64,000 nucleotides of DNA, from positions 61,593-125,592 of IMG/VR virus record IMGVR_UViG_3300020577_007233. One strand, written 5' to 3'. The notes below the pieces were generated by a model, which searched no databases, was not told where the DNA came from, and saw only the letters and a list, made by a program, of their open reading frames with translations. Source of the stretch: a virus (lineage: Duplodnaviria; Heunggongvirae; Uroviricota; Caudoviricetes). Positions 54,616 to 64,000 of this stretch are shown in pieces; position 1 is the stretch's first letter, and each line of letters opens with the position of its first letter. The position numbers and the translations under genes were made by a program.

Positions 54616-55671
54616 TTACGTCAAAGGACGGAAATAACCAGGAGCGGTCGGTCCACCAAACGTGGTCGAACTGTCAACGCTAACATTACAAGTACCAAGT
54701 TCAATAGCTTCGTAGTCGTTTTCGCAGTCACCAAGCGCCCTAAATGGAACTCTTGTTTCGATTATGTCGTTGCTGATAGCAACTTCTTCGATCTGGAAGA
54801 TAACACCCCACAAAGCAGTTGCCCAATACGGTACGGTTGAACTACCAAGAGTATACCCAAACTGAATCTTGGTTTGGGACGTAAAGCGACTCTGGTTGTT
54901 ATAGATGAATTCGTGGAACTGTTTATTTGCAAAGCCCATCAAAGCCATACTACCTTCAATTACTCTCTTACGAGCGGTAATATCTTGAGGAACAAGTTTA
55001 CCGTTCAAGGTATAGAAACGATCAGCATTGTTGTTAAGCGTTACTTCGAATGAACGAATATACGAACCAGGAACAACAATACTTTCTTCTCTAACAAAGA
55101 CGTTGATACGGAAATCGTTCCATGTAACAATACGAGCAGGAGACAAGAAAGTTGGCGATCTTTCGCTTGTTAGAGGCTCTCTAACGTTGTCAGTAACGTT
55201 TGCTCCTCCGATAACACCGAATCCAATGTTAACCTCAGCACCTTGAGTGACGTTTATTCTCATTGTATTGATAATGCAGTTTGGATATCTATATGCAGTA
55301 TTGTCTGTATAACGAACATCTACGTTGAACTGATTTACCAATCTACCTACTTGATCTCTTTTTGCCGCAATATTCCAAAGACGATTTGCTAAGTTTGTAT
55401 CGCAAGTAGCAGTCGCTTCTCCGCAATCCTTGCCGGTTCCGTTATTGATACCTTCGTGAACAAGAGGAAATTCACAGTTACCATCAACCATACGAGGACC
55501 GATTTGGTAAAGAGTATTGTCAATGCGGCCATCAACAACGTCTGGATATGAAATATCTTGCTTTGCTCGGATGTCGCAAGACTTAGCTCTTACAAAGATT
55601 TCTTGTCCGATAGATCCGCCGCTGAATCTAACAGAACCAACAAATCCCATTTGCGCTGTTGGTATAGGCAT
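54616..55671 (-). CDS. Major tail (tube) protein
   Basis: 351 aa, beta-rich, with two similar halves (IGPRMVDGNCEFPL; IRSFEVTLNNN...DITARKRVIEGSMAL). Strong SD, position just before the chaperone, followed by a terminator. Confidence 0.75.
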   Translation of the reverse strand: MPIPTAQMGFVGSVRFSGGSIGQEIFVRAKSCDIRAKQDISYPDVVDGRIDNTLYQIGPRMVDGNCEFPLVHEGINNGTGKDCGEATATCDTNLANRLWNIAAKRDQVGRLVNQFNVDVRYTDNTAYRYPNCIINTMRINVTQGAEVNIGFGVIGGANVTDNVREPLTSERSPTFLSPARIVTWNDFRINVFVREESIVVPGSYIRSFEVTLNNNADRFYTLNGKLVPQDITARKRVIEGSMALMGFANKQFHEFIYNNQSRFTSQTKIQFGYTLGSSTVPYWATALWGVIFQIEEVAISNDIIETRVPFRALGDCENDYEAIELGTCNVSVDSSTTFGGPTAPGYFRPLT

Positions 55672-56269: not shown

Positions 56270-57430
56270 TTAGACTACATCTAGAGCGAGGATTTGTTTG
56301 GTAAATCTGACTTCCTCAACCATCTTTGAAAGACTGTCAAGAAAAGCCTTTTCTGAATACCTAGATGCGACTTCTATAGCCGCCTCAGATGCCTGTTGTA
56401 AAAGGGTTTTATTGCTCATAATTTGAGACAATAGGACTGAAAGCTCATTGGAGGAAACAATTGCGAATTCTTCCTCGTTCTGTCCTATGAATATATTGTA
56501 CGGCACAGTAAAGCGTAGTCCTTCTGGCATCTCCGAAATTATTTCACCAACCCTTCCGTATGAAGGACCAACAGGTATACAGCCGCAAGCCATGCCTTCA
56601 AGTAGGGAAAGAGCAGTAGCTGACTTTATCGAACAATCAACTATAATTGCTGATTTGTTATATATTTCCGCAAGCTTAAAGTCTGGAATTCCATCCTTGA
56701 CAGAACAATAATCTTCTGTATATGACAGGTTGACTGCCTTATACTTCTGTTTTAGTATGTCTATGTTGTAATCTCCTGGATCATAGAGATTTGTGTGAAG
56801 ATAGGAATTAAAGGGCCTTTCTGCTACCGCCATAACAAATGCTGAAAGATTACTTGCCTGAGCGTTTCGTGCCGAACAAAGAACTCCCGCCTTTTCTTTG
56901 TTTTCGTAGTTGAATATTTGATGATTTGGGCCGTATGGTACAAATTTAGCGTTAGCATTGGCAAAGGAAGAAATCTCCTTCAAGGAAAATTCATTCGTAG
57001 TTATAACCTGGTCTGCGTATTCAAAAGCATCCTTATTGACGCTTGGAATGCCATTGCAATCTATTGTGTAGATAGCAAGCCACTTAAACAAGGTTGGATA
57101 CATAGCTTTGATCGCATAGATAAAGTTGGTATCCTTGTGATCTCCAATAGTTATTACCAAATCAGGCTGAACCGCTTTCATAAGTTCGTAGATATAGGGA
57201 GAAGCCTCGTCTGTCTTGGGGGTAAATGGATAAAGAAAACAAACATGCTTACTCGCATCAGTATAAGCATGAACTCCTTCATCTGAAGGCATGAAATAAC
57301 CCTCGTCATGATGCCAAACAGCAGAAGAAACAGTATGACCGTCTTGGACAAGTCTTTTAAGTATGCCTGCATTTATCTTGCCGTTTCGAACAAGAAGATA
57401 GGGTGACGCTCCAATAGTTAGGATCTTCAT
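56270..57430 (-). CDS. Glycosyltransferase, GT-B fold, GT4-like (degenerate EX7E motif)
   Basis: 386 aa; MKILTIG, QPDLVITIGD, AEIYNKSAIIV...ALSLLEGMACGCIPV, ASRYS. Confidence 0.85.
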   Translation of the reverse strand: MKILTIGASPYLLVRNGKINAGILKRLVQDGHTVSSAVWHHDEGYFMPSDEGVHAYTDASKHVCFLYPFTPKTDEASPYIYELMKAVQPDLVITIGDHKDTNFIYAIKAMYPTLFKWLAIYTIDCNGIPSVNKDAFEYADQVITTNEFSLKEISSFANANAKFVPYGPNHQIFNYENKEKAGVLCSARNAQASNLSAFVMAVAERPFNSYLHTNLYDPGDYNIDILKQKYKAVNLSYTEDYCSVKDGIPDFKLAEIYNKSAIIVDCSIKSATALSLLEGMACGCIPVGPSYGRVGEIISEMPEGLRFTVPYNIFIGQNEEEFAIVSSNELSVLLSQIMSNKTLLQQASEAAIEVASRYSEKAFLDSLSKMVEEVRFTKQILALDVV

Positions 57431-57954: not shown

Positions 57955-58860
57955 TCATGTAAGCTGAGGATCAGACCATCCATGACGAGTCTGAATTTCT
58001 TGTTCTTCTGCGAACCAATCTATACTAGCCGCATGAAGAAGACTTCCCTTGTATTTGAAGCCATAGTTGATTTCGCTAGGCCAAGAGTTGTAAACAAATC
58101 TTGTCAAGCGAATGATTTTCGTCTGATCGCTTGTTAGGTAATCATAGTAAGGATTAGGCCATACTTGAAGCGTTGTAGAATCAGGGATAGCAGCAACTCG
58201 AAGCTCTTCTGCTTGGTAAAGATTCTCTATGATGATTTTGTCCTCGCAAGCGAATCTCGAAGAATCTGAAACCTTGATAAATTCGTCGCCGCCTTCAACG
58301 TCCGCAATAGTGCTTACAACATCATAAGGACCAATCAAGGGAAAGATGTTTTTCTTCAATCCAAGCTGAATGATATTTGCAACCTGCATAACCATTCTGT
58401 AAGAAGCTTCATGGTTATCATTGTCTGCATAAACAACTATCTGAGCCTTGTATCTTTCTTTCGTTGTGCCAAGAGTAAACCATTCAGAACTTCTTCCTTG
58501 TCCAAGAATAGTGATAGCAGGATAACGGGGTATTACATCAGGCTCTCCAATGTATATGGCTTGAATAAACTGACCGTCGTAAGTCTTGGTCAACATGGCA
58601 TTTGCAGAAACTTTCCATCCCGTAATAACTCTTACAGGTGATTCGAGAACAACAGTTCTCTCATCTGGTATTTCGCTTATCCTAAGACCAGGCTCTCCGT
58701 TTGTTCCATCATGAAGAGCAACCTCATCTCCGACTCTAAACCTTTTCGAAGATGTCACAGAGATAGTGGTCGCTCCGTACGCGGCATCAGCGGTTAGTGT
58801 GGTTGTTGTATTAACCCACCTATAAATCGTTCTTCGTAGGCTTTCGAGAAATTCTATCAT
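57955..58860 (-). CDS. Putative tail terminator/completion protein with two inserted beta-domains
   Basis: 301 aa. Core IYIGEPDVIPRYPAITI...SEWFTLG...YKAQIVVY...YGFKYKGSLLHAASIDWFAEE; neck position between adaptor and tail tube. Confidence 0.6.
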   Translation of the reverse strand: MIEFLESLRRTIYRWVNTTTTLTADAAYGATTISVTSSKRFRVGDEVALHDGTNGEPGLRISEIPDERTVVLESPVRVITGWKVSANAMLTKTYDGQFIQAIYIGEPDVIPRYPAITILGQGRSSEWFTLGTTKERYKAQIVVYADNDNHEASYRMVMQVANIIQLGLKKNIFPLIGPYDVVSTIADVEGGDEFIKVSDSSRFACEDKIIIENLYQAEELRVAAIPDSTTLQVWPNPYYDYLTSDQTKIIRLTRFVYNSWPSEINYGFKYKGSLLHAASIDWFAEEQEIQTRHGWSDPQLT

Positions 58861-59144
58861 TGGTTTTTATTATTGTATTCCGTAGCAACCCTGTCAAGAC
58901 TTTTGTAAATCATGTCTTTGACAAACTCAAAGGCAAAGTTTTCTAATTCATCTTCGGCAGCTTCGTGGGTCTTCAAGAAATTCTCATATGCTGCCCTTTG
59001 TTTTGCTTCATCAGTCGTTTCACTAATAACTGAACGTAAAGGGAAGGTGGCATTATGAACTTCTTGTCCGTCAAGATTCCGAAATTGATTAGTAAGGTCT
59101 TTTATCAATTCGAATGCTACCTCTTTTTCTATCTCTTTACTCAT
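58857..59144 (-). CDS. Hypothetical acidic helical protein
   Basis: 95 aa; ATGA overlaps on both sides and GGAGG upstream. Confidence 0.75.
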   Translation of the reverse strand: MSKEIEKEVAFELIKDLTNQFRNLDGQEVHNATFPLRSVISETTDEAKQRAAYENFLKTHEAAEDELENFAFEFVKDMIYKSLDRVATEYNNKNQ

Positions 59145-59869
59145 GCGTCCCCTCCTTCAATCTTGATGTTGAAATCCTTATCCAAAGGAGGCAAACCATA
59201 TCTATCCCTAAGCGTTGGGTTGAAGAAACGATTACCAATACGCTTTTGTCCGTGCAAAATGGTTATACCATTGATAATGGCATTCAAATCAGAAACAGCC
59301 CACTTTCTCAAAGTCTTACCGTAATCAGACATGCCAGGATTAGCTTGAGCAGCAAAGTATTTGTCATAGATATTCGCTGCTGCAAGGCGAGCGCAAGTAA
59401 GGCTTACCGTTGGAGGGAACTTAACCCTTATGACCCTTGTTGTTTCGACATGATAAATACCAATCAAAGGATCCTGAAGTTCAACGTCTGTAGCATTGAC
59501 CACTTCAGAAACAGTATGTCGCTCTTCCGTTAAATCTGTTATGAACACAAGACTGTCTCCTGGATTTAGGAGAACAGCCTTGCTGAACTGAACCGTATCG
59601 TTGTAGGTGTCTATGTCAGAAAGAAGAGTAAGCTCTAGGTCGGCCTTCTCGCAAAGAGGGATGACATAAAGCTCGCTCAGTGCTGCATCTATTTGTTCGC
59701 CTGCCCAAGTAATGTATTGCAAAACAGTGTCATCTGAAATGACGTTATTATCTTTGCTCTTACCAAATCTCCACAAAGGAACGGGCTGTCCGTTGACAAC
59801 GGTATTTGTTGCAGACGTTAAAGCCTGGGCAAGGATGTCATAGACCTGTTGAGTTGTAGTATAGCCCAT
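59141..59869 (-). CDS. Head-tail adaptor, Mu gp36/DUF1320-like, with an inserted beta-domain
   Basis: 242 aa; MGYTT..QV, ITWAGEQIDAALSELYVIPL, PPTVSLTCARLAAANIY, AVSDLNAIINGITIL. Confidence 0.75.
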   Translation of the reverse strand: MGYTTTQQVYDILAQALTSATNTVVNGQPVPLWRFGKSKDNNVISDDTVLQYITWAGEQIDAALSELYVIPLCEKADLELTLLSDIDTYNDTVQFSKAVLLNPGDSLVFITDLTEERHTVSEVVNATDVELQDPLIGIYHVETTRVIRVKFPPTVSLTCARLAAANIYDKYFAAQANPGMSDYGKTLRKWAVSDLNAIINGITILHGQKRIGNRFFNPTLRDRYGLPPLDKDFNIKIEGGDA

Positions 59870-59879
59870 TTAAGCTCCA

Positions 59880-60935
59880 TTATGTTAGGATTTTATCTAA
59901 CGCATCTGATGCCTCTTTCTTCTGCGTAAGGATTGCCTGAGTAAGCAAACCTTCTACTACGGCGTTGCGAGGACTCTTTGCGTGCTTCACTTCCTTAATT
60001 TGGAATGGCAACTGCAATCCCTTTACTATCTTCTCAAGTTTCTCGCAAAATCCCTTTGGCATACTTGTACCACCAGCAATAACAATGTCCAGAGGCTGGT
60101 TGAACTGGCTCTTGACTTCTTGAAACTTCTTTCCGAAGTTCTTGAAAACATACTCAATCATAGAATCGTAATATGCATTTAGTGCAAAAATTACGTCATC
60201 ATTGTCGTCAAGATTATTGAAGTCGAGCTTCTTTTCTTTGGCGGAAATAATCTGAGAAATAGCTACGCCAGTTTGCTCGCAAACTTGCTTATCAACCCAA
60301 TCACCGCTTCGGGCAACAGACATGCCAATAACAGGCAAGCCCTTGTAAGCCAAAAGACAGTTTACCCTACCAGCGCCAAAGCTTACACCAATACCCGAAT
60401 AAGGAACAACCGTTCCATCTTCTTCAATAATGGTTGGTCTTTCGCTTAGAACAACTGCGTGAGCTTCTTCAAGAATCTTAACTTTCCAGCCAAGTCGAGT
60501 AAAGAGAGCGGTCAAACGGTTTCTATGAAAGGTTGAATCAGCAGAACCATCAATCGAATCAGAGCTTACGCAAGTGCAAACCCAAGAGTTCGAATCGGGA
60601 GCCTGCCCGATAGAGGCCTTGATGATTTCGGCAAGAACAACAAGCTTCTTGTCTTCGTTCTTATTCAAAACGCCGTCAGCCATTGGACGACGTACTTCAA
60701 CCTTGCCAGGAAAAATATTGGCAACTTTAATACAATCATCACCAACAACGTAATAGTTGTCTCCATCACGGATGTACTGCCAGTTGTTTGACTTCAAAGC
60801 TTCCTCTACGTCATCCGTTTTGGGAAGCTCAACAAACGCATTTCTTGTATTCTTGACAACAACTTGTCCGTTTACCAACTCTGCGACCTGGAAAAACATT
60901 GTTCCTGGGTCAACTCCGATTACTCTGCTTGCCAT
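59880..60935 (-). CDS. Actin-like ATPase (MreB/ParM/MamK superfamily; resembles the volactin family)
   Basis: 351 aa. Phosphate-1 IGVDPGT, RRPMADGVL, connect-1 LEEAHAVV, phosphate-2 GIGVSFGAGRVN, ARSGDWVD, adenosine IVIAGGTS, connect-2 PRNAVVEG. SD AAGGAG. Confidence 0.9.
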   Translation of the reverse strand: MASRVIGVDPGTMFFQVAELVNGQVVVKNTRNAFVELPKTDDVEEALKSNNWQYIRDGDNYYVVGDDCIKVANIFPGKVEVRRPMADGVLNKNEDKKLVVLAEIIKASIGQAPDSNSWVCTCVSSDSIDGSADSTFHRNRLTALFTRLGWKVKILEEAHAVVLSERPTIIEEDGTVVPYSGIGVSFGAGRVNCLLAYKGLPVIGMSVARSGDWVDKQVCEQTGVAISQIISAKEKKLDFNNLDDNDDVIFALNAYYDSMIEYVFKNFGKKFQEVKSQFNQPLDIVIAGGTSMPKGFCEKLEKIVKGLQLPFQIKEVKHAKSPRNAVVEGLLTQAILTQKKEASDALDKILT

Positions 60936-60950
60936 TTTTGTTCTCCTTTT

Positions 60951-61538
60951 TTACAGCAAACCTTCTAATTCTTGGGTGTTCTTCATTACATCACTACTAT
61001 CGGTTCTTTGCTCTTCTTGCCTTACGCTAGTTTCCGCCTTGTTGGTCAATCGGTTCAATGTCCTTTTGTGGATATCCACAGTTCTTGGATCGTCCGATTC
61101 TTCTGTATTAGACGGCTGTGTGGTCTTATTTTGACCTGCTTGAGAGGCTATACCCTGCAAGGCTGCAAGGGCTTGATTCAGCAAGTTAACGTCAACCTGC
61201 GGCTGAGTAGATACTCTCTCTTCGAGTCTTCTAGTTAGTTTTTCTTCAAGCTGCTTTACAGCGTCCACAACATCTGAAGGGCTAACTTCAGTCTTTGCTC
61301 CTGGAACGTTTTCTGGAACATAATCTGAACGCTTTATCTGAAAAGCGCCGCTGCCATCATCTTTGAAGATGCATTTCAGAGCATTGTTTCTCAAACATCT
61401 CTTAAGAAGAGATGACTGATCAATGTAGAATCTAGAAGAAACCATATCCAAGTCAATTTGATCGTTAGGAGCAAGATTGACTCTCAACTCAGGGATGGAT
61501 ACTTCTGTTTTTGAGATATTCTTGACTATGTACATCAC
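60951..61538 (-). CDS. Hypothetical protein with a central coiled coil and charged tail
   Basis: 195 aa; VDAVKQLEEKLTRRLEE coiled coil; lies directly upstream of the actin-like gene. Confidence 0.8.
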   Translation of the reverse strand: MMYIVKNISKTEVSIPELRVNLAPNDQIDLDMVSSRFYIDQSSLLKRCLRNNALKCIFKDDGSGAFQIKRSDYVPENVPGAKTEVSPSDVVDAVKQLEEKLTRRLEERVSTQPQVDVNLLNQALAALQGIASQAGQNKTTQPSNTEESDDPRTVDIHKRTLNRLTNKAETSVRQEEQRTDSSDVMKNTQELEGLL

Positions 61539-61741
61539 ATTCTCCTCGTCCTAGGATAGGGAGAAGCAAGAGGTTTTGACAAATCCATAAGGTTCATTGT
61601 TTTGCACGATTGACAAAGCCAATAAACTTTGCTCTCCGCAAAATTGAACTCGATGGTTGGGTTATGCTGGTGATTTCTACAACTCGCACAAACCGCTACA
61701 ATCTTAGATTCTTCTGTTTTCTTCTCTTTAGCTTCTTCCAT
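61535..61741 (-). CDS. Small zinc-ribbon protein
   Basis: 68 aa; CASC...CQSC. Confidence 0.75.
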   Translation of the reverse strand: MEEAKEKKTEESKIVAVCASCRNHQHNPTIEFNFAESKVYWLCQSCKTMNLMDLSKPLASPYPRTRRM

Positions 61742-63998
61742 ACTCTATTTTCGCAACAATGTCGTCTATCATACTTGTATCGACATTAAACTGCGCCATT
61801 CTTTGTCTCAAAACAAGAAGCTGGTTCAGTCTCTTCTGAGAAGCTATCTTGCGAAGAAGGTAATGCTTAGAAGCGGCTGCTAGCGTCATCGTCTTGTCTC
61901 TGGCGTCAAGAACATCAGCAAACAATAGAGCTTCAGCCAATGGCGGCTTATCCCAAAGAGCCTTACCAACAGCAGGTTTCTCAAGAAGGGTTTCTACAAT
62001 CCCTTGTATGTTGCCCTTGTCTTTGGTTGCAAGAGTTTTCTGAAGAACGCCGTTTCGGTGGGCGGCGTAAAGCTTGGGATAGAATTTCTGAGCAATCTGA
62101 GAATACCTTCTCTGAGGCATGTCTTCTATAGCTCCCATTATGTTTGAAGGGTCAGTAATGCCAATGCTCGACAAGAACTCATTTCTGTTTGCAAAACCAT
62201 GTTGCTGCAAAAACTGCGGATTGTCAGATGTCTGAGAAATATGCTTACCCAAAAACTCCTTAAGAGCTTCTAGCGGTCTAAACTCTTCAACATAGTATCT
62301 ACCGTATTCAGTGTTATAGAACTGCTCAACAATAGCAGTCTTGTCTGAATTCTTTGCCTTGGTAAAGTCTGCCTTAGATTTGATGTTGTTTATTCCTGCT
62401 GCGTTTGCAAGAGAAGCAACGTACTGATCTGTTATTGTTGGATATGCTGGATCTGACAAAACCTTTCTAAGTTCACTCTTAGGTGAATAGATGAGCTTAA
62501 GCGTATCCTTGACTCCCGCAAAGATATCTGAAATCTCTTTAGGAGACATATGCTCAATCTCTTGTTCTGGGGTCTGAATAACGCCTCTTCTTGAAAGTTC
62601 AGTCAAGTAGTTGATCTTGTCCTCAAACGAACCTCTATTGTTCTGTGCTAGCAAAGAACCAACAACAGCACTAAACTTGTCAAAACCAATAATGTCAAGG
62701 AACGAAATGAGAGTATCGCCGCCGTACTTAGATACAAGGTCCGGGTCAACAAGCAAATCTTTCAGTCCCGTAAGCTTACTCTTGGATCTCAAAGAAAGAG
62801 CATTTGCGGTGTTATCTCTGGCTGAACCCTCGTCGCCCTTTTGGAAAACTCCGACATTACCCTTGAAGTCAACCTTGCCAACAATGGCCTGATATACCAA
62901 TGAAGGGTCATTAACGGGTGTTCCGTCTTTGTTGACAACAAGTTGATCGTCTATCGCCATCTGAACAGCCGCCTGAACGTCTTCGGAATCTTCTGCGCTC
63001 CAACCAAAATCTCTCCAGTGATCTTGTTTGAAAAGAGTATCCCAATCCTGATTGAGAATGCTTATAGACCTAGCATCTGTAAGATTCTTGCCGGTTCTGT
63101 GCGCAGTTTCAACAACATGGTTCACAGAGTCGCTGCAAGATCTTTGGACTCTAGCCCACAACAATGACTTCTCCAAAATGTTCAGCTTGAGTTCTTTACC
63201 ACCTGGAGCGTCGTTAGGAGTTGCTTGATAAGTGTCGCCCATCTTTTCTAGCAAATCACTAATGAAACCATTGATCTTGTTCCAGTTGGTTTCTAGACTT
63301 GTAAGAGTAGAAGAATCAACATCAGAGCCTTTCTCAACGGGCGGACCTTCATTACGAAGGCCGTTTTCGTTGAAGATTTCTTCTGGCAATGGAAGTCTGA
63401 AATCTGTAGCAAACTGTCTATCTGGGCGAATGGAAAGATCGTTACCACCAGAAAGGCCGTCAGCCGCTGGATCTGATTCCTGCATTACATTTGGTGGGTT
63501 CTTTCTCTTTCCGTACTTTCTAATCTCTCCAAGAACCCAGTTGAAAAACTTCTCATGCATAGGAGAAGCCTTGTCTGTCATATAACCAATCAAAGCGTCC
63601 TTCAATAACTCTGCATGGTTTTGCAGAACACCCATAGGCTCGCTTCTATAGCTACCAGCGCCCCTGGCAAGCATTTCAACTTCTTCTGGTTGTGCGTTTT
63701 CACCAAGAATATGAGCAGTCGTATTGACCATATCCTTCTCGTTAAAGAAGGCCAAGAACAAGTCCTTGTTCTTTATGTCTGCTTGGAAAAGCTCTTCCTT
63801 CAAGAACGCAAAAGGATCAATAGGAGGCTCTTCATTTGCATCCATTACGGAGTCAAAATTATCATCTCCGTAATCGTCATCATAGTCGTTTCCGTAGTTG
63901 GGCTTCTTTTTACGCTTGCCACTTAAACTTTCTGAAGCGCTCTTTTCGTTTAGAAGCTGCGTGTATCTTCTAATGACCTTTTTCTTATCTTCAGGTGT
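61728..63998 (-). CDS. Large acidic helical hypothetical protein, 5'-truncated by the window edge (>756 aa)
   Basis: The frame upstream of the track ATG (63845) stays open to the edge (TPEDKKKVIRRYTQLL...DDNFDSV-M), so the true start probably lies outside the window. Confidence 0.8.
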   Translation of the reverse strand, partial: TPEDKKKVIRRYTQLLNEKSASESLSGKRKKKPNYGNDYDDDYGDDNFDSVMDANEEPPIDPFAFLKEELFQADIKNKDLFLAFFNEKDMVNTTAHILGENAQPEEVEMLARGAGSYRSEPMGVLQNHAELLKDALIGYMTDKASPMHEKFFNWVLGEIRKYGKRKNPPNVMQESDPAADGLSGGNDLSIRPDRQFATDFRLPLPEEIFNENGLRNEGPPVEKGSDVDSSTLTSLETNWNKINGFISDLLEKMGDTYQATPNDAPGGKELKLNILEKSLLWARVQRSCSDSVNHVVETAHRTGKNLTDARSISILNQDWDTLFKQDHWRDFGWSAEDSEDVQAAVQMAIDDQLVVNKDGTPVNDPSLVYQAIVGKVDFKGNVGVFQKGDEGSARDNTANALSLRSKSKLTGLKDLLVDPDLVSKYGGDTLISFLDIIGFDKFSAVVGSLLAQNNRGSFEDKINYLTELSRRGVIQTPEQEIEHMSPKEISDIFAGVKDTLKLIYSPKSELRKVLSDPAYPTITDQYVASLANAAGINNIKSKADFTKAKNSDKTAIVEQFYNTEYGRYYVEEFRPLEALKEFLGKHISQTSDNPQFLQQHGFANRNEFLSSIGITDPSNIMGAIEDMPQRRYSQIAQKFYPKLYAAHRNGVLQKTLATKDKGNIQGIVETLLEKPAVGKALWDKPPLAEALLFADVLDARDKTMTLAAASKHYLLRKIASQKRLNQLLVLRQRMAQFNVDTSMIDDIVAKIEYGRS

Positions 63999-64000
63999 AG

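Follow-up and report, generated by a model that had tools for sequence, protein, structure and literature searches.

Cytoskeletons that phages build for themselves have so far been described as the tubulin PhuZ in nucleus-forming jumbo phages and as the ParM-like actin AlpC in a prophage. The filaments of PhuZ set the position of the phage nucleus and transport capsids (PMC13282480), and AlpC, together with its DNA-binding adaptor AlpA, supports viral DNA transport and replication in prophage CGP3 of Corynebacterium (PMC4446434, PMC5539076). In Haloferax volcanii, volactin (VolA) assembles into dynamic polymers within the cell and has a role in cell-shape transition (PMC10869688). No mention of phages was found in the literature on volactin, most subscription journals lying outside the coverage of our search; a 2026 review of jumbo phages names no phage actin (PMC13282480), and none was found in the other searchable literature. 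Here, we describe a volactin-family gene in a 64,000-nucleotide (nt) stretch of DNA from an uncultured phage (Caudoviricetes), hereafter called the window, which covers bases 61593-125592 of the 256,820-bp IMG/VR record IMGVR_UViG_3300020577_007233 (positions are in window numbering unless marked). On balance, we favor the reading that this gene and the gene upstream of it form a phage-borne two-gene actin module, made of a partner protein and a volactin with a zinc-ribbon gene in front, whose filaments would organize late infection in space.

The product of the actin gene, a protein of 351 amino acids (aa), matched the Pfam family Volactin (PF25216) along almost the entire profile (E 1.5e-60; 205.8 bits with a cut-off of 35; profile positions 3-321 of 321). 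A six-frame search of the whole 257-kb record with PF25216 returned one match only (205.5 bits), indicating a single copy. Scores for other actin families fell below their cut-offs, with 19.4 bits for the MreB family of Pfam (PF06723; cut-off, 27), 15 bits for Pfam Actin, 23.2 bits for NCBIfam MamK (NF040964; cut-off, 400) and 15.3 bits for NCBIfam MreB (cut-off, 293). The ParM/StbA families of Pfam gave no match at E<=0.01, and no PHROGs family matched the protein. A first-pass annotation of the window, made without database searches, had recognized an intact actin-fold ATPase with its nucleotide-binding motifs and had found these motifs closer to volactin than to MreB or ParM. Both proposals were borne out, by the full-length PF25216 match and by the motifs, model and tree described below, and MamK was excluded by its score.

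We then modeled the protein with AlphaFold2 from a 75-row alignment (predicted local distance difference test [pLDDT] score, 96.4; predicted template modeling score, 0.93). Foldseek searches with this model placed MreB, MamK and BeeR at the top (E 1e-16 to 1e-13; template modeling [TM] score, 0.6-0.7), followed by eukaryotic actins (E to 1e-11). The volactin family itself has no member with a solved structure, and a search of PDB sequences with the single actin sequence yielded nothing solved, the best match being MamK at E 0.35. When the family profile was used against PDB sequences, MamK (1e-14), BeeR (1e-9), MreB (2e-8) and FtsA came out nearest, and neither a kinase nor a ParM chain was retrieved at E<=0.01. 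Thus, by profile and by fold, the nearest solved relatives are all filament formers. MamK, BeeR and MreB share the actin fold with the phage protein and give its best matches; however, its identity to MreB is 17-18%, its scores lie far under the cut-offs of these families and the TM scores reach only 0.6-0.7.

Motifs conserved over 75 family members comprise phosphate-1 (D8-x-G10-T11), RRPM (R82, P83), the region of the catalytic Glu (E156), phosphate-2 (G180..G186-x-G188), R-S-GDW-V-D and the adenosine motif AGGTS (G287, G288). Where MreB has Asp in phosphate-2 (DIGGGTT), every volactin aligned, Haloferax included, has Ser (SFGAG); since it is present in the whole volactin family, this Ser is a family trait and not a defect of the phage gene. 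Some metagenomic family members of about 730 aa (P0131, P0166 and P0183) seem to carry two volactin domains fused in tandem within a single chain.

A library-wide phmmer search with the actin gave 804 representatives of the family at E<=1e-3, and 528 relatives were confirmed in a genome scan with an 11-row alignment. From the scan, 80 loci were kept, and they belonged mostly to metagenome-assembled genomes of Planctomycetota and to Halobacteria (Haloferax, Haloarcula), Archaeoglobaceae, Thermoplasmatota, Omnitrophota and others. The maximum-likelihood tree had 117 rows and used as its outgroup MreB from five of the volactin-carrying genomes, which also hold a separate bona fide MreB. The volactin family was split from four MreB rows with full support (Shimodaira-Hasegawa-like approximate likelihood ratio test, 100); the remaining MreB row (L116), which has a long branch (2.5), stood on the family side. 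The window actin fell in a 7-row clade of huge phages (support, 100), nested in a 36-row clade with Planctomycetota sequences (support, 100), and Planctomycetota was the nearest named cellular clade. Archaeal volactins formed a separate clade. The likeness to haloarchaeal volactin that had been noted from motifs thus held at the level of the family, but the phage gene branches beside Planctomycetota and not within the archaeal clade. Like VolA, the phage protein matches PF25216 over its full length, carries the SFGAG, RRPM, R-x-GDW-ID and AGGTS motifs and belongs to one clade apart from MreB. It is only about 32% identical to the Haloferax orthologues (33-36% to the Planctomycetota proteins), and it lies in a Planctomycetota-side subclade, beside neck genes, whereas VolA lies on the archaeal branch.

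The record is 51% complete according to CheckV, has a GC content of 40% and carries nearly all genes of the stretch on the minus strand. Relatives with direct terminal repeats measure 461-499 kb, and the size of the phage is roughly 500 kb in a clade of about 0.46-0.55 Mb. A homologue search with the actin gave 596 matches, of which the best 120 were all at least 60% identical and all matched PF25216, many of them on contigs of 170-467 kb. The gene order PhoH, large open reading frame (ORF), zinc ribbon, partner, actin, adaptor and, further on, tail tube was kept in 18 IMG/VR loci and one ENA locus, so that the conserved neighborhood sought in related phages was indeed found. Across loci, the median identity was highest for the actin (75%), followed by the 430-aa gene (65%), the adaptor (63%), the tube (55%) and the partner (48%), and the actin was conserved nearly as well as the capsid protein.

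A second sample of relatives was chosen through the capsid protein, independently of the actin. Exactly one volactin gene was present in eight of the nine capsid-chosen records that were at least 90% complete, and four of these eight had been absent from the actin-based search. The sole exception, IMGVR_UViG_3300037067_022526 (G016; 137,762 bp), lacks a volactin gene and is called 100% complete through inverted terminal repeats; its capsid protein is 73% identical, but it reaches a quarter of the length of the related genomes, and the record is probably a fragment or an artifact of assembly. The actin is therefore a near-core, single-copy gene of the clade under strong purifying conservation. 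Four complete relatives gave no match to Pfam Tubulin, and no rival cytoskeleton was seen there.

Insertions of mobile elements, the usual mark of conserved phage genes, were found in and beside the actin gene of relatives. The volactins of P0121, P0123 and P0124 (56-60% identical) contain an intein of about 350 aa with Intein_splicing and LAGLIDADG_3 domains, inserted exactly in the R|SGDW motif as AAR|(C...HN)|CGDWID, the +1 residue being Cys; the equivalent site in the window is at about 60309-60311. Between the partner and actin genes, a free-standing LAGLIDADG gene is present at L007:9184-9996, L010:9187-10008 and L019:9286-10005 and an HNH gene at L020:8684-9595, where the window has a 15-nt gap. 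More distant volactins, about 30% identical, are encoded by the published but unannotated huge-phage genomes LR745208.1 (L105) and LR756511.1 (L106), of 485 and 595 kb, and lie on other branches of the tree.

The protein encoded upstream of the actin had been described as 195 aa long and as a possible filament adaptor. The alignment of homologues suggests an ATG start at 61535, giving 194 aa. The protein has a conserved N-domain of about 65 aa, followed by a helical linker that varies and by a C-terminal tail that is nearly invariant and ends in N..ELEGLL, and it matched no Pfam, PHROG or NCBIfam family. In every one of the 18 phage loci, the partner gene precedes the actin gene, either directly or with an inserted homing-endonuclease gene in between. 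Moreover, in 17 Planctomycetota loci, the ORF that directly precedes volactin was matched by a hidden Markov model (HMM) of the partner (E 4e-11 to 1e-4). Phage and Planctomycetota partners can be aligned in their N-domain and in their overall architecture, and their C-tails are similar. The Planctomycetota pairs (L025-L043, L050) have the same arrangement as the phage pair, with a partner of about 200 aa and then the actin on one strand, 12-87 nt apart in most cases among the loci listed. They differ in their 33-36% identity and in their cellular context, with neither a zinc-ribbon gene nor phage structural neighbors; one of these loci is clearly cellular, with ExbD, a TPR protein and a histidine kinase nearby. 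HMMs of the zinc ribbon, the adaptor, the 301-aa gene and the 430-aa gene gave no match beside cellular volactins. Since the partner is kept beside cellular volactin and the phage neighbors are not, partner and actin form a unit of two genes that does not depend on the structural genes of the phage. Of the three-gene system suggested by the first-pass annotation, the pair was thus confirmed, with a genuine dedicated partner in 18 phage and 17 Planctomycetota loci, but the zinc ribbon does not belong to the conserved unit: judged by its distribution, it is a phage-specific gene in front of the two-gene module. We regard the partner as a candidate adaptor for the actin or a candidate regulator. 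No upstream partner was detected beside archaeal volactin genes, in contrast to the phage gene with its dedicated one. A predicted complex of actin and partner reached ipSAE values of 0.13 and 0.08, compared with a mark of 0.32, which gives no verdict either way.

The occurrence of the same pair in cells raises the question of whether the phage copy mimics or replaces a host volactin and its partner of the Planctomycetota type, reshaping or enlarging the cell to suit very large virions without carrying virion parts. The only characterized volactin acts in cell-shape transition (PMC10869688), and the nesting of the phage clade with Planctomycetota, together with the same cellular pair, makes the locus look like an acquired host module. 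However, auxiliary host-like genes are usually patchy and lie in variable regions, whereas this actin is near-core, the most conserved gene of its block and fixed beside the adaptor gene, and its identity to the Planctomycetota proteins is only 33-36%. The GC content of the phage, 40%, is also low by the standard of most Planctomycetota. We consider such a take-over of host cell shape or size to be rather unlikely.

On the coding strand, the genes follow one another in the order 1034-aa ORF, zinc ribbon (68 aa), partner, actin, 242-aa ORF, 95-aa ORF and 301-aa ORF; beyond these lie further small ORFs, a glycosyltransferase gene and, 4.2 kb downstream of the actin, the tail tube gene, which marks the downstream tail module (Table 1). 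The 1034-aa ORF overlaps the zinc-ribbon gene by 14 nt, the zinc-ribbon and partner genes share a stop/start overlap (TGATG), the gap between partner and actin carries an AAGGAG Shine-Dalgarno site, and 10 nt separate the actin stop codon from the 242-aa ORF. The tight, co-oriented spacing noted earlier is therefore confirmed by the coordinates. The four Cys of the zinc ribbon are invariant in the alignment, and the protein is present in 14 phage loci.

Table 1. Genes of the volactin locus and of the head module (window numbering unless a contig label is given)
Feature	Length (aa)	Position	Strand	Basis or remark
Volactin-family actin-fold ATPase	351	59880..60935	-	PF25216 full length, AlphaFold2 model, tree
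Partner protein	194	60951..61535	-	Alignment; upstream of actin throughout
Zinc-ribbon protein	68	61535..61741	-	CxxC...CxxC, basic PRTRR C-terminus
1034-aa ORF, 3' part	1034	61728..64000, running past the window to 64832	-	No family assignment
430-aa protein	430	L002:5185-6477 = 66593-67885 in window numbering	-	Always upstream of PhoH in the block
Probable head-tail adaptor with inserted beta-barrel	242	59141..59869	-	phrog_195, E 0.005
95-aa ORF	95	58857-59144		Between the 242-aa adaptor gene and the 301-aa gene
Neck-region protein	301	57955..58860	-	Kept in 14-16 loci, median identity 54%
GT4-like glycosyltransferase		56270-57430	-	Weak Pfam matches; kept among neck/tail genes in 12 relatives
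Tail tube protein	351	54616..55671	-	PF18906 Phage_tube_2, E 1.3e-11; phrog_290, E 8e-12
Protease	276	G000:C1:144948-145778	-	PHROG scan
Major head protein, HK97-type	299	G000:C1:149092-149991	-	phrog_2522, E 1e-59
Portal	772	G000:C1:159098-161416	-	PHROG scan
TerL	1004	G000:C1:175214-178228	-	PHROG scan

The 242-aa ORF, kept in all 18 loci, had been labeled a head-tail adaptor, and this label received moderate support. Besides the phrog_195 match, residues 1-213 of its AlphaFold2 model (pLDDT 69) gave VIA Z scores of 8.3-9.2, near the noise level of the tool, to many chains of podophage portal-tail adaptors, among them 9k09_d, 8jov_G, 9d83_B, 8ck1_E and 9lc0_H. The product is thus probably a head-tail adaptor, an assignment that is plausible, not proven. 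Its inserted beta-barrel (residues ~72-150) resembled domains of tailspike, tail tube and P22 coat I-domain proteins (Z 8-10; root mean square deviation, 2-2.5 A).

The position of the actin directly before this adaptor gene, with a strong Shine-Dalgarno site, would also suit a non-filamentous ATPase of the acetate and sugar kinase/Hsp70/actin superfamily, acting as an assembly chaperone or as a virion or neck component, like the Hsp70 homologue in closterovirus virions; fold matches in BFVD do include viral Hsp70 homologues. On the other hand, the protein has the size of a nucleotide-binding domain and lacks a substrate-binding domain, its nearest relatives by profile and fold are the filament formers MamK, BeeR and MreB and not Hsp70, and the same pair occurs in cells without virion genes. 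We therefore hold a chaperone or structural role to be very improbable.

Actin-based positioning of DNA, as in ParMRC or AlpAC, was considered as well. Here, the partner, the zinc ribbon or both would bind phage DNA, and the actin would move or anchor replicating or packaging genomes. AlpC and AlpA of prophage CGP3 provide a precedent (PMC4446434, PMC5539076) in which a phage-encoded actin-like protein goes with a small adaptor, a candidate for which stands beside the actin at this locus too; the partner with its N-domain and C-tail and the zinc ribbon with its basic tail would fit such a scheme. However, AlpC and ParM belong to another actin family, and AlpC comes from a temperate prophage, whereas the present gene stands among structural genes of a phage of about 0.5 Mb; integration or maintenance genes were not identified near the module. 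The protein had no ParM/StbA match in Pfam (E<0.01), and no iterated centromere-like repeats were found from about 1.4 kb downstream to about 5.7 kb upstream of the actin gene. This repeat search covered window positions 58500-64000 and L002 1-5200, and it returned only two-copy chance repeats inside coding sequence. The lack of flanking repeats counts against a system of the ParMRC/AlpAC type. Furthermore, the partner gene lies upstream and not downstream of the actin, the neighbors are neck and tail genes and not replication genes, and the cellular homologues are chromosomal, without plasmid context. DNA positioning of this kind thus appears quite unlikely.

The actin follows a large ORF and a small acidic protein and precedes the adaptor, the slot expected for a capsid gene, and we therefore searched for that gene. 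Pfam Phage_capsid and Gp23 gave no match, complete relatives included. In contrast, a PHROG scan of 43 further ORFs yielded the major head protein, portal, protease and TerL, so that the actin was ruled out as the major capsid protein, an HK97-type head protein being present elsewhere in the record. The true head module (G000:C1:144948-178228, minus strand) contains protease, major head protein, a 2008-aa ORF, portal and TerL and lies 23-55 kb upstream of the actin. With about 27 kb between it and the capsid gene upstream, the actin thus stands in the neck/tail end of a single long block of co-oriented genes. The proposal of the first-pass annotation that the actin sits inside a virion assembly operon therefore holds for a conserved, co-oriented morphogenesis block but not for proximity to the head genes. 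The 1034-aa ORF was ruled out as the portal, as it matched no Pfam, PHROG or NCBIfam family and is poorly conserved (26% mean column identity among relatives of 754-1185 aa) and as the true portal gene lies elsewhere (Table 1). A scan for sigma-70 promoters gave results at or below shuffled expectation, and a terminator scan found 17 against 10.4 +/- 3.4 expected, a modest excess; transcription-unit boundaries were therefore not drawn.

Among the other neighbors, a PhoH gene lies directly upstream of the 1034-aa ORF. The 430-aa protein shows 63% mean column identity and an invariant C-terminal LPGGRSRWF motif; neither it nor the 301-aa protein had a family or PDB match, and searches of the PDB by sequence and profile with the 430-aa, 242-aa and 301-aa proteins gave nothing usable. 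In the ESM Atlas, the partner and the 1034-aa ORF retrieved only unnamed viral clusters or no match. The GT4-like glycosyltransferase may glycosylate virion proteins.

We return to the favored reading, that of a partner-volactin module organizing late infection. By analogy with Haloferax volactin and with the nearest solved relatives, the actin would bind ATP and polymerize into dynamic filaments; with an intact, highly conserved gene and a dedicated partner, these phages probably build actin filaments of their own. The partner, through its conserved N-domain and C-terminal tail, would either tether the filament to a site or cargo or regulate it. Transcription of the module would occur late in infection, together with that of the neck and tail genes, and the filaments could, for example, position or transport proheads, tails or sites of packaging within a large host cell. 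Several points weigh against this. The phosphate-2 Asp is replaced by Ser, yet the change is family-wide and the founding member still polymerizes. Apart from the adaptor and the tube, the nearest neighbors have no assigned function, and since PhoH, which is non-structural, stands upstream in the block, the notion of a virion operon is a positional argument only. Finally, the volactins of LR745208.1 and LR756511.1 have no neighbors detectably homologous to this block, and linkage to neck genes is thus a trait of this clade and not of phage volactins generally.

PhuZ of the Chimalliviridae, likewise a phage-encoded cytoskeletal NTPase of a very large phage, offers a functional model for the role proposed here. 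The two differ in that PhuZ has a tubulin fold and the present protein an actin fold, and in that PhuZ transcripts are listed with the early ones of phiKZ (PMC13282480), whereas the actin gene stands among neck and tail genes. We can only tentatively suggest that a clade of phages of about 0.5 Mb might use its own actin filaments and a dedicated adaptor as a late cytoskeleton joining heads, tails or packaging sites, as a counterpart of the PhuZ spindle.

What is new here is that an actin family characterized in one haloarchaeon is a near-core gene of a widespread clade of phages of about 0.5 Mb, where it is accompanied by a partner. Both proteins are small, and their expression and assay would be possible without phage culture. 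If the actin polymerizes, the largest phages would have more than one way to organize the infected cell, and work on volactin would gain a tractable system of two proteins, one of them a candidate regulator that is missing from the archaeal system. Planctomycetota, or bacteria sharing the module, would then be a place to seek the hosts.

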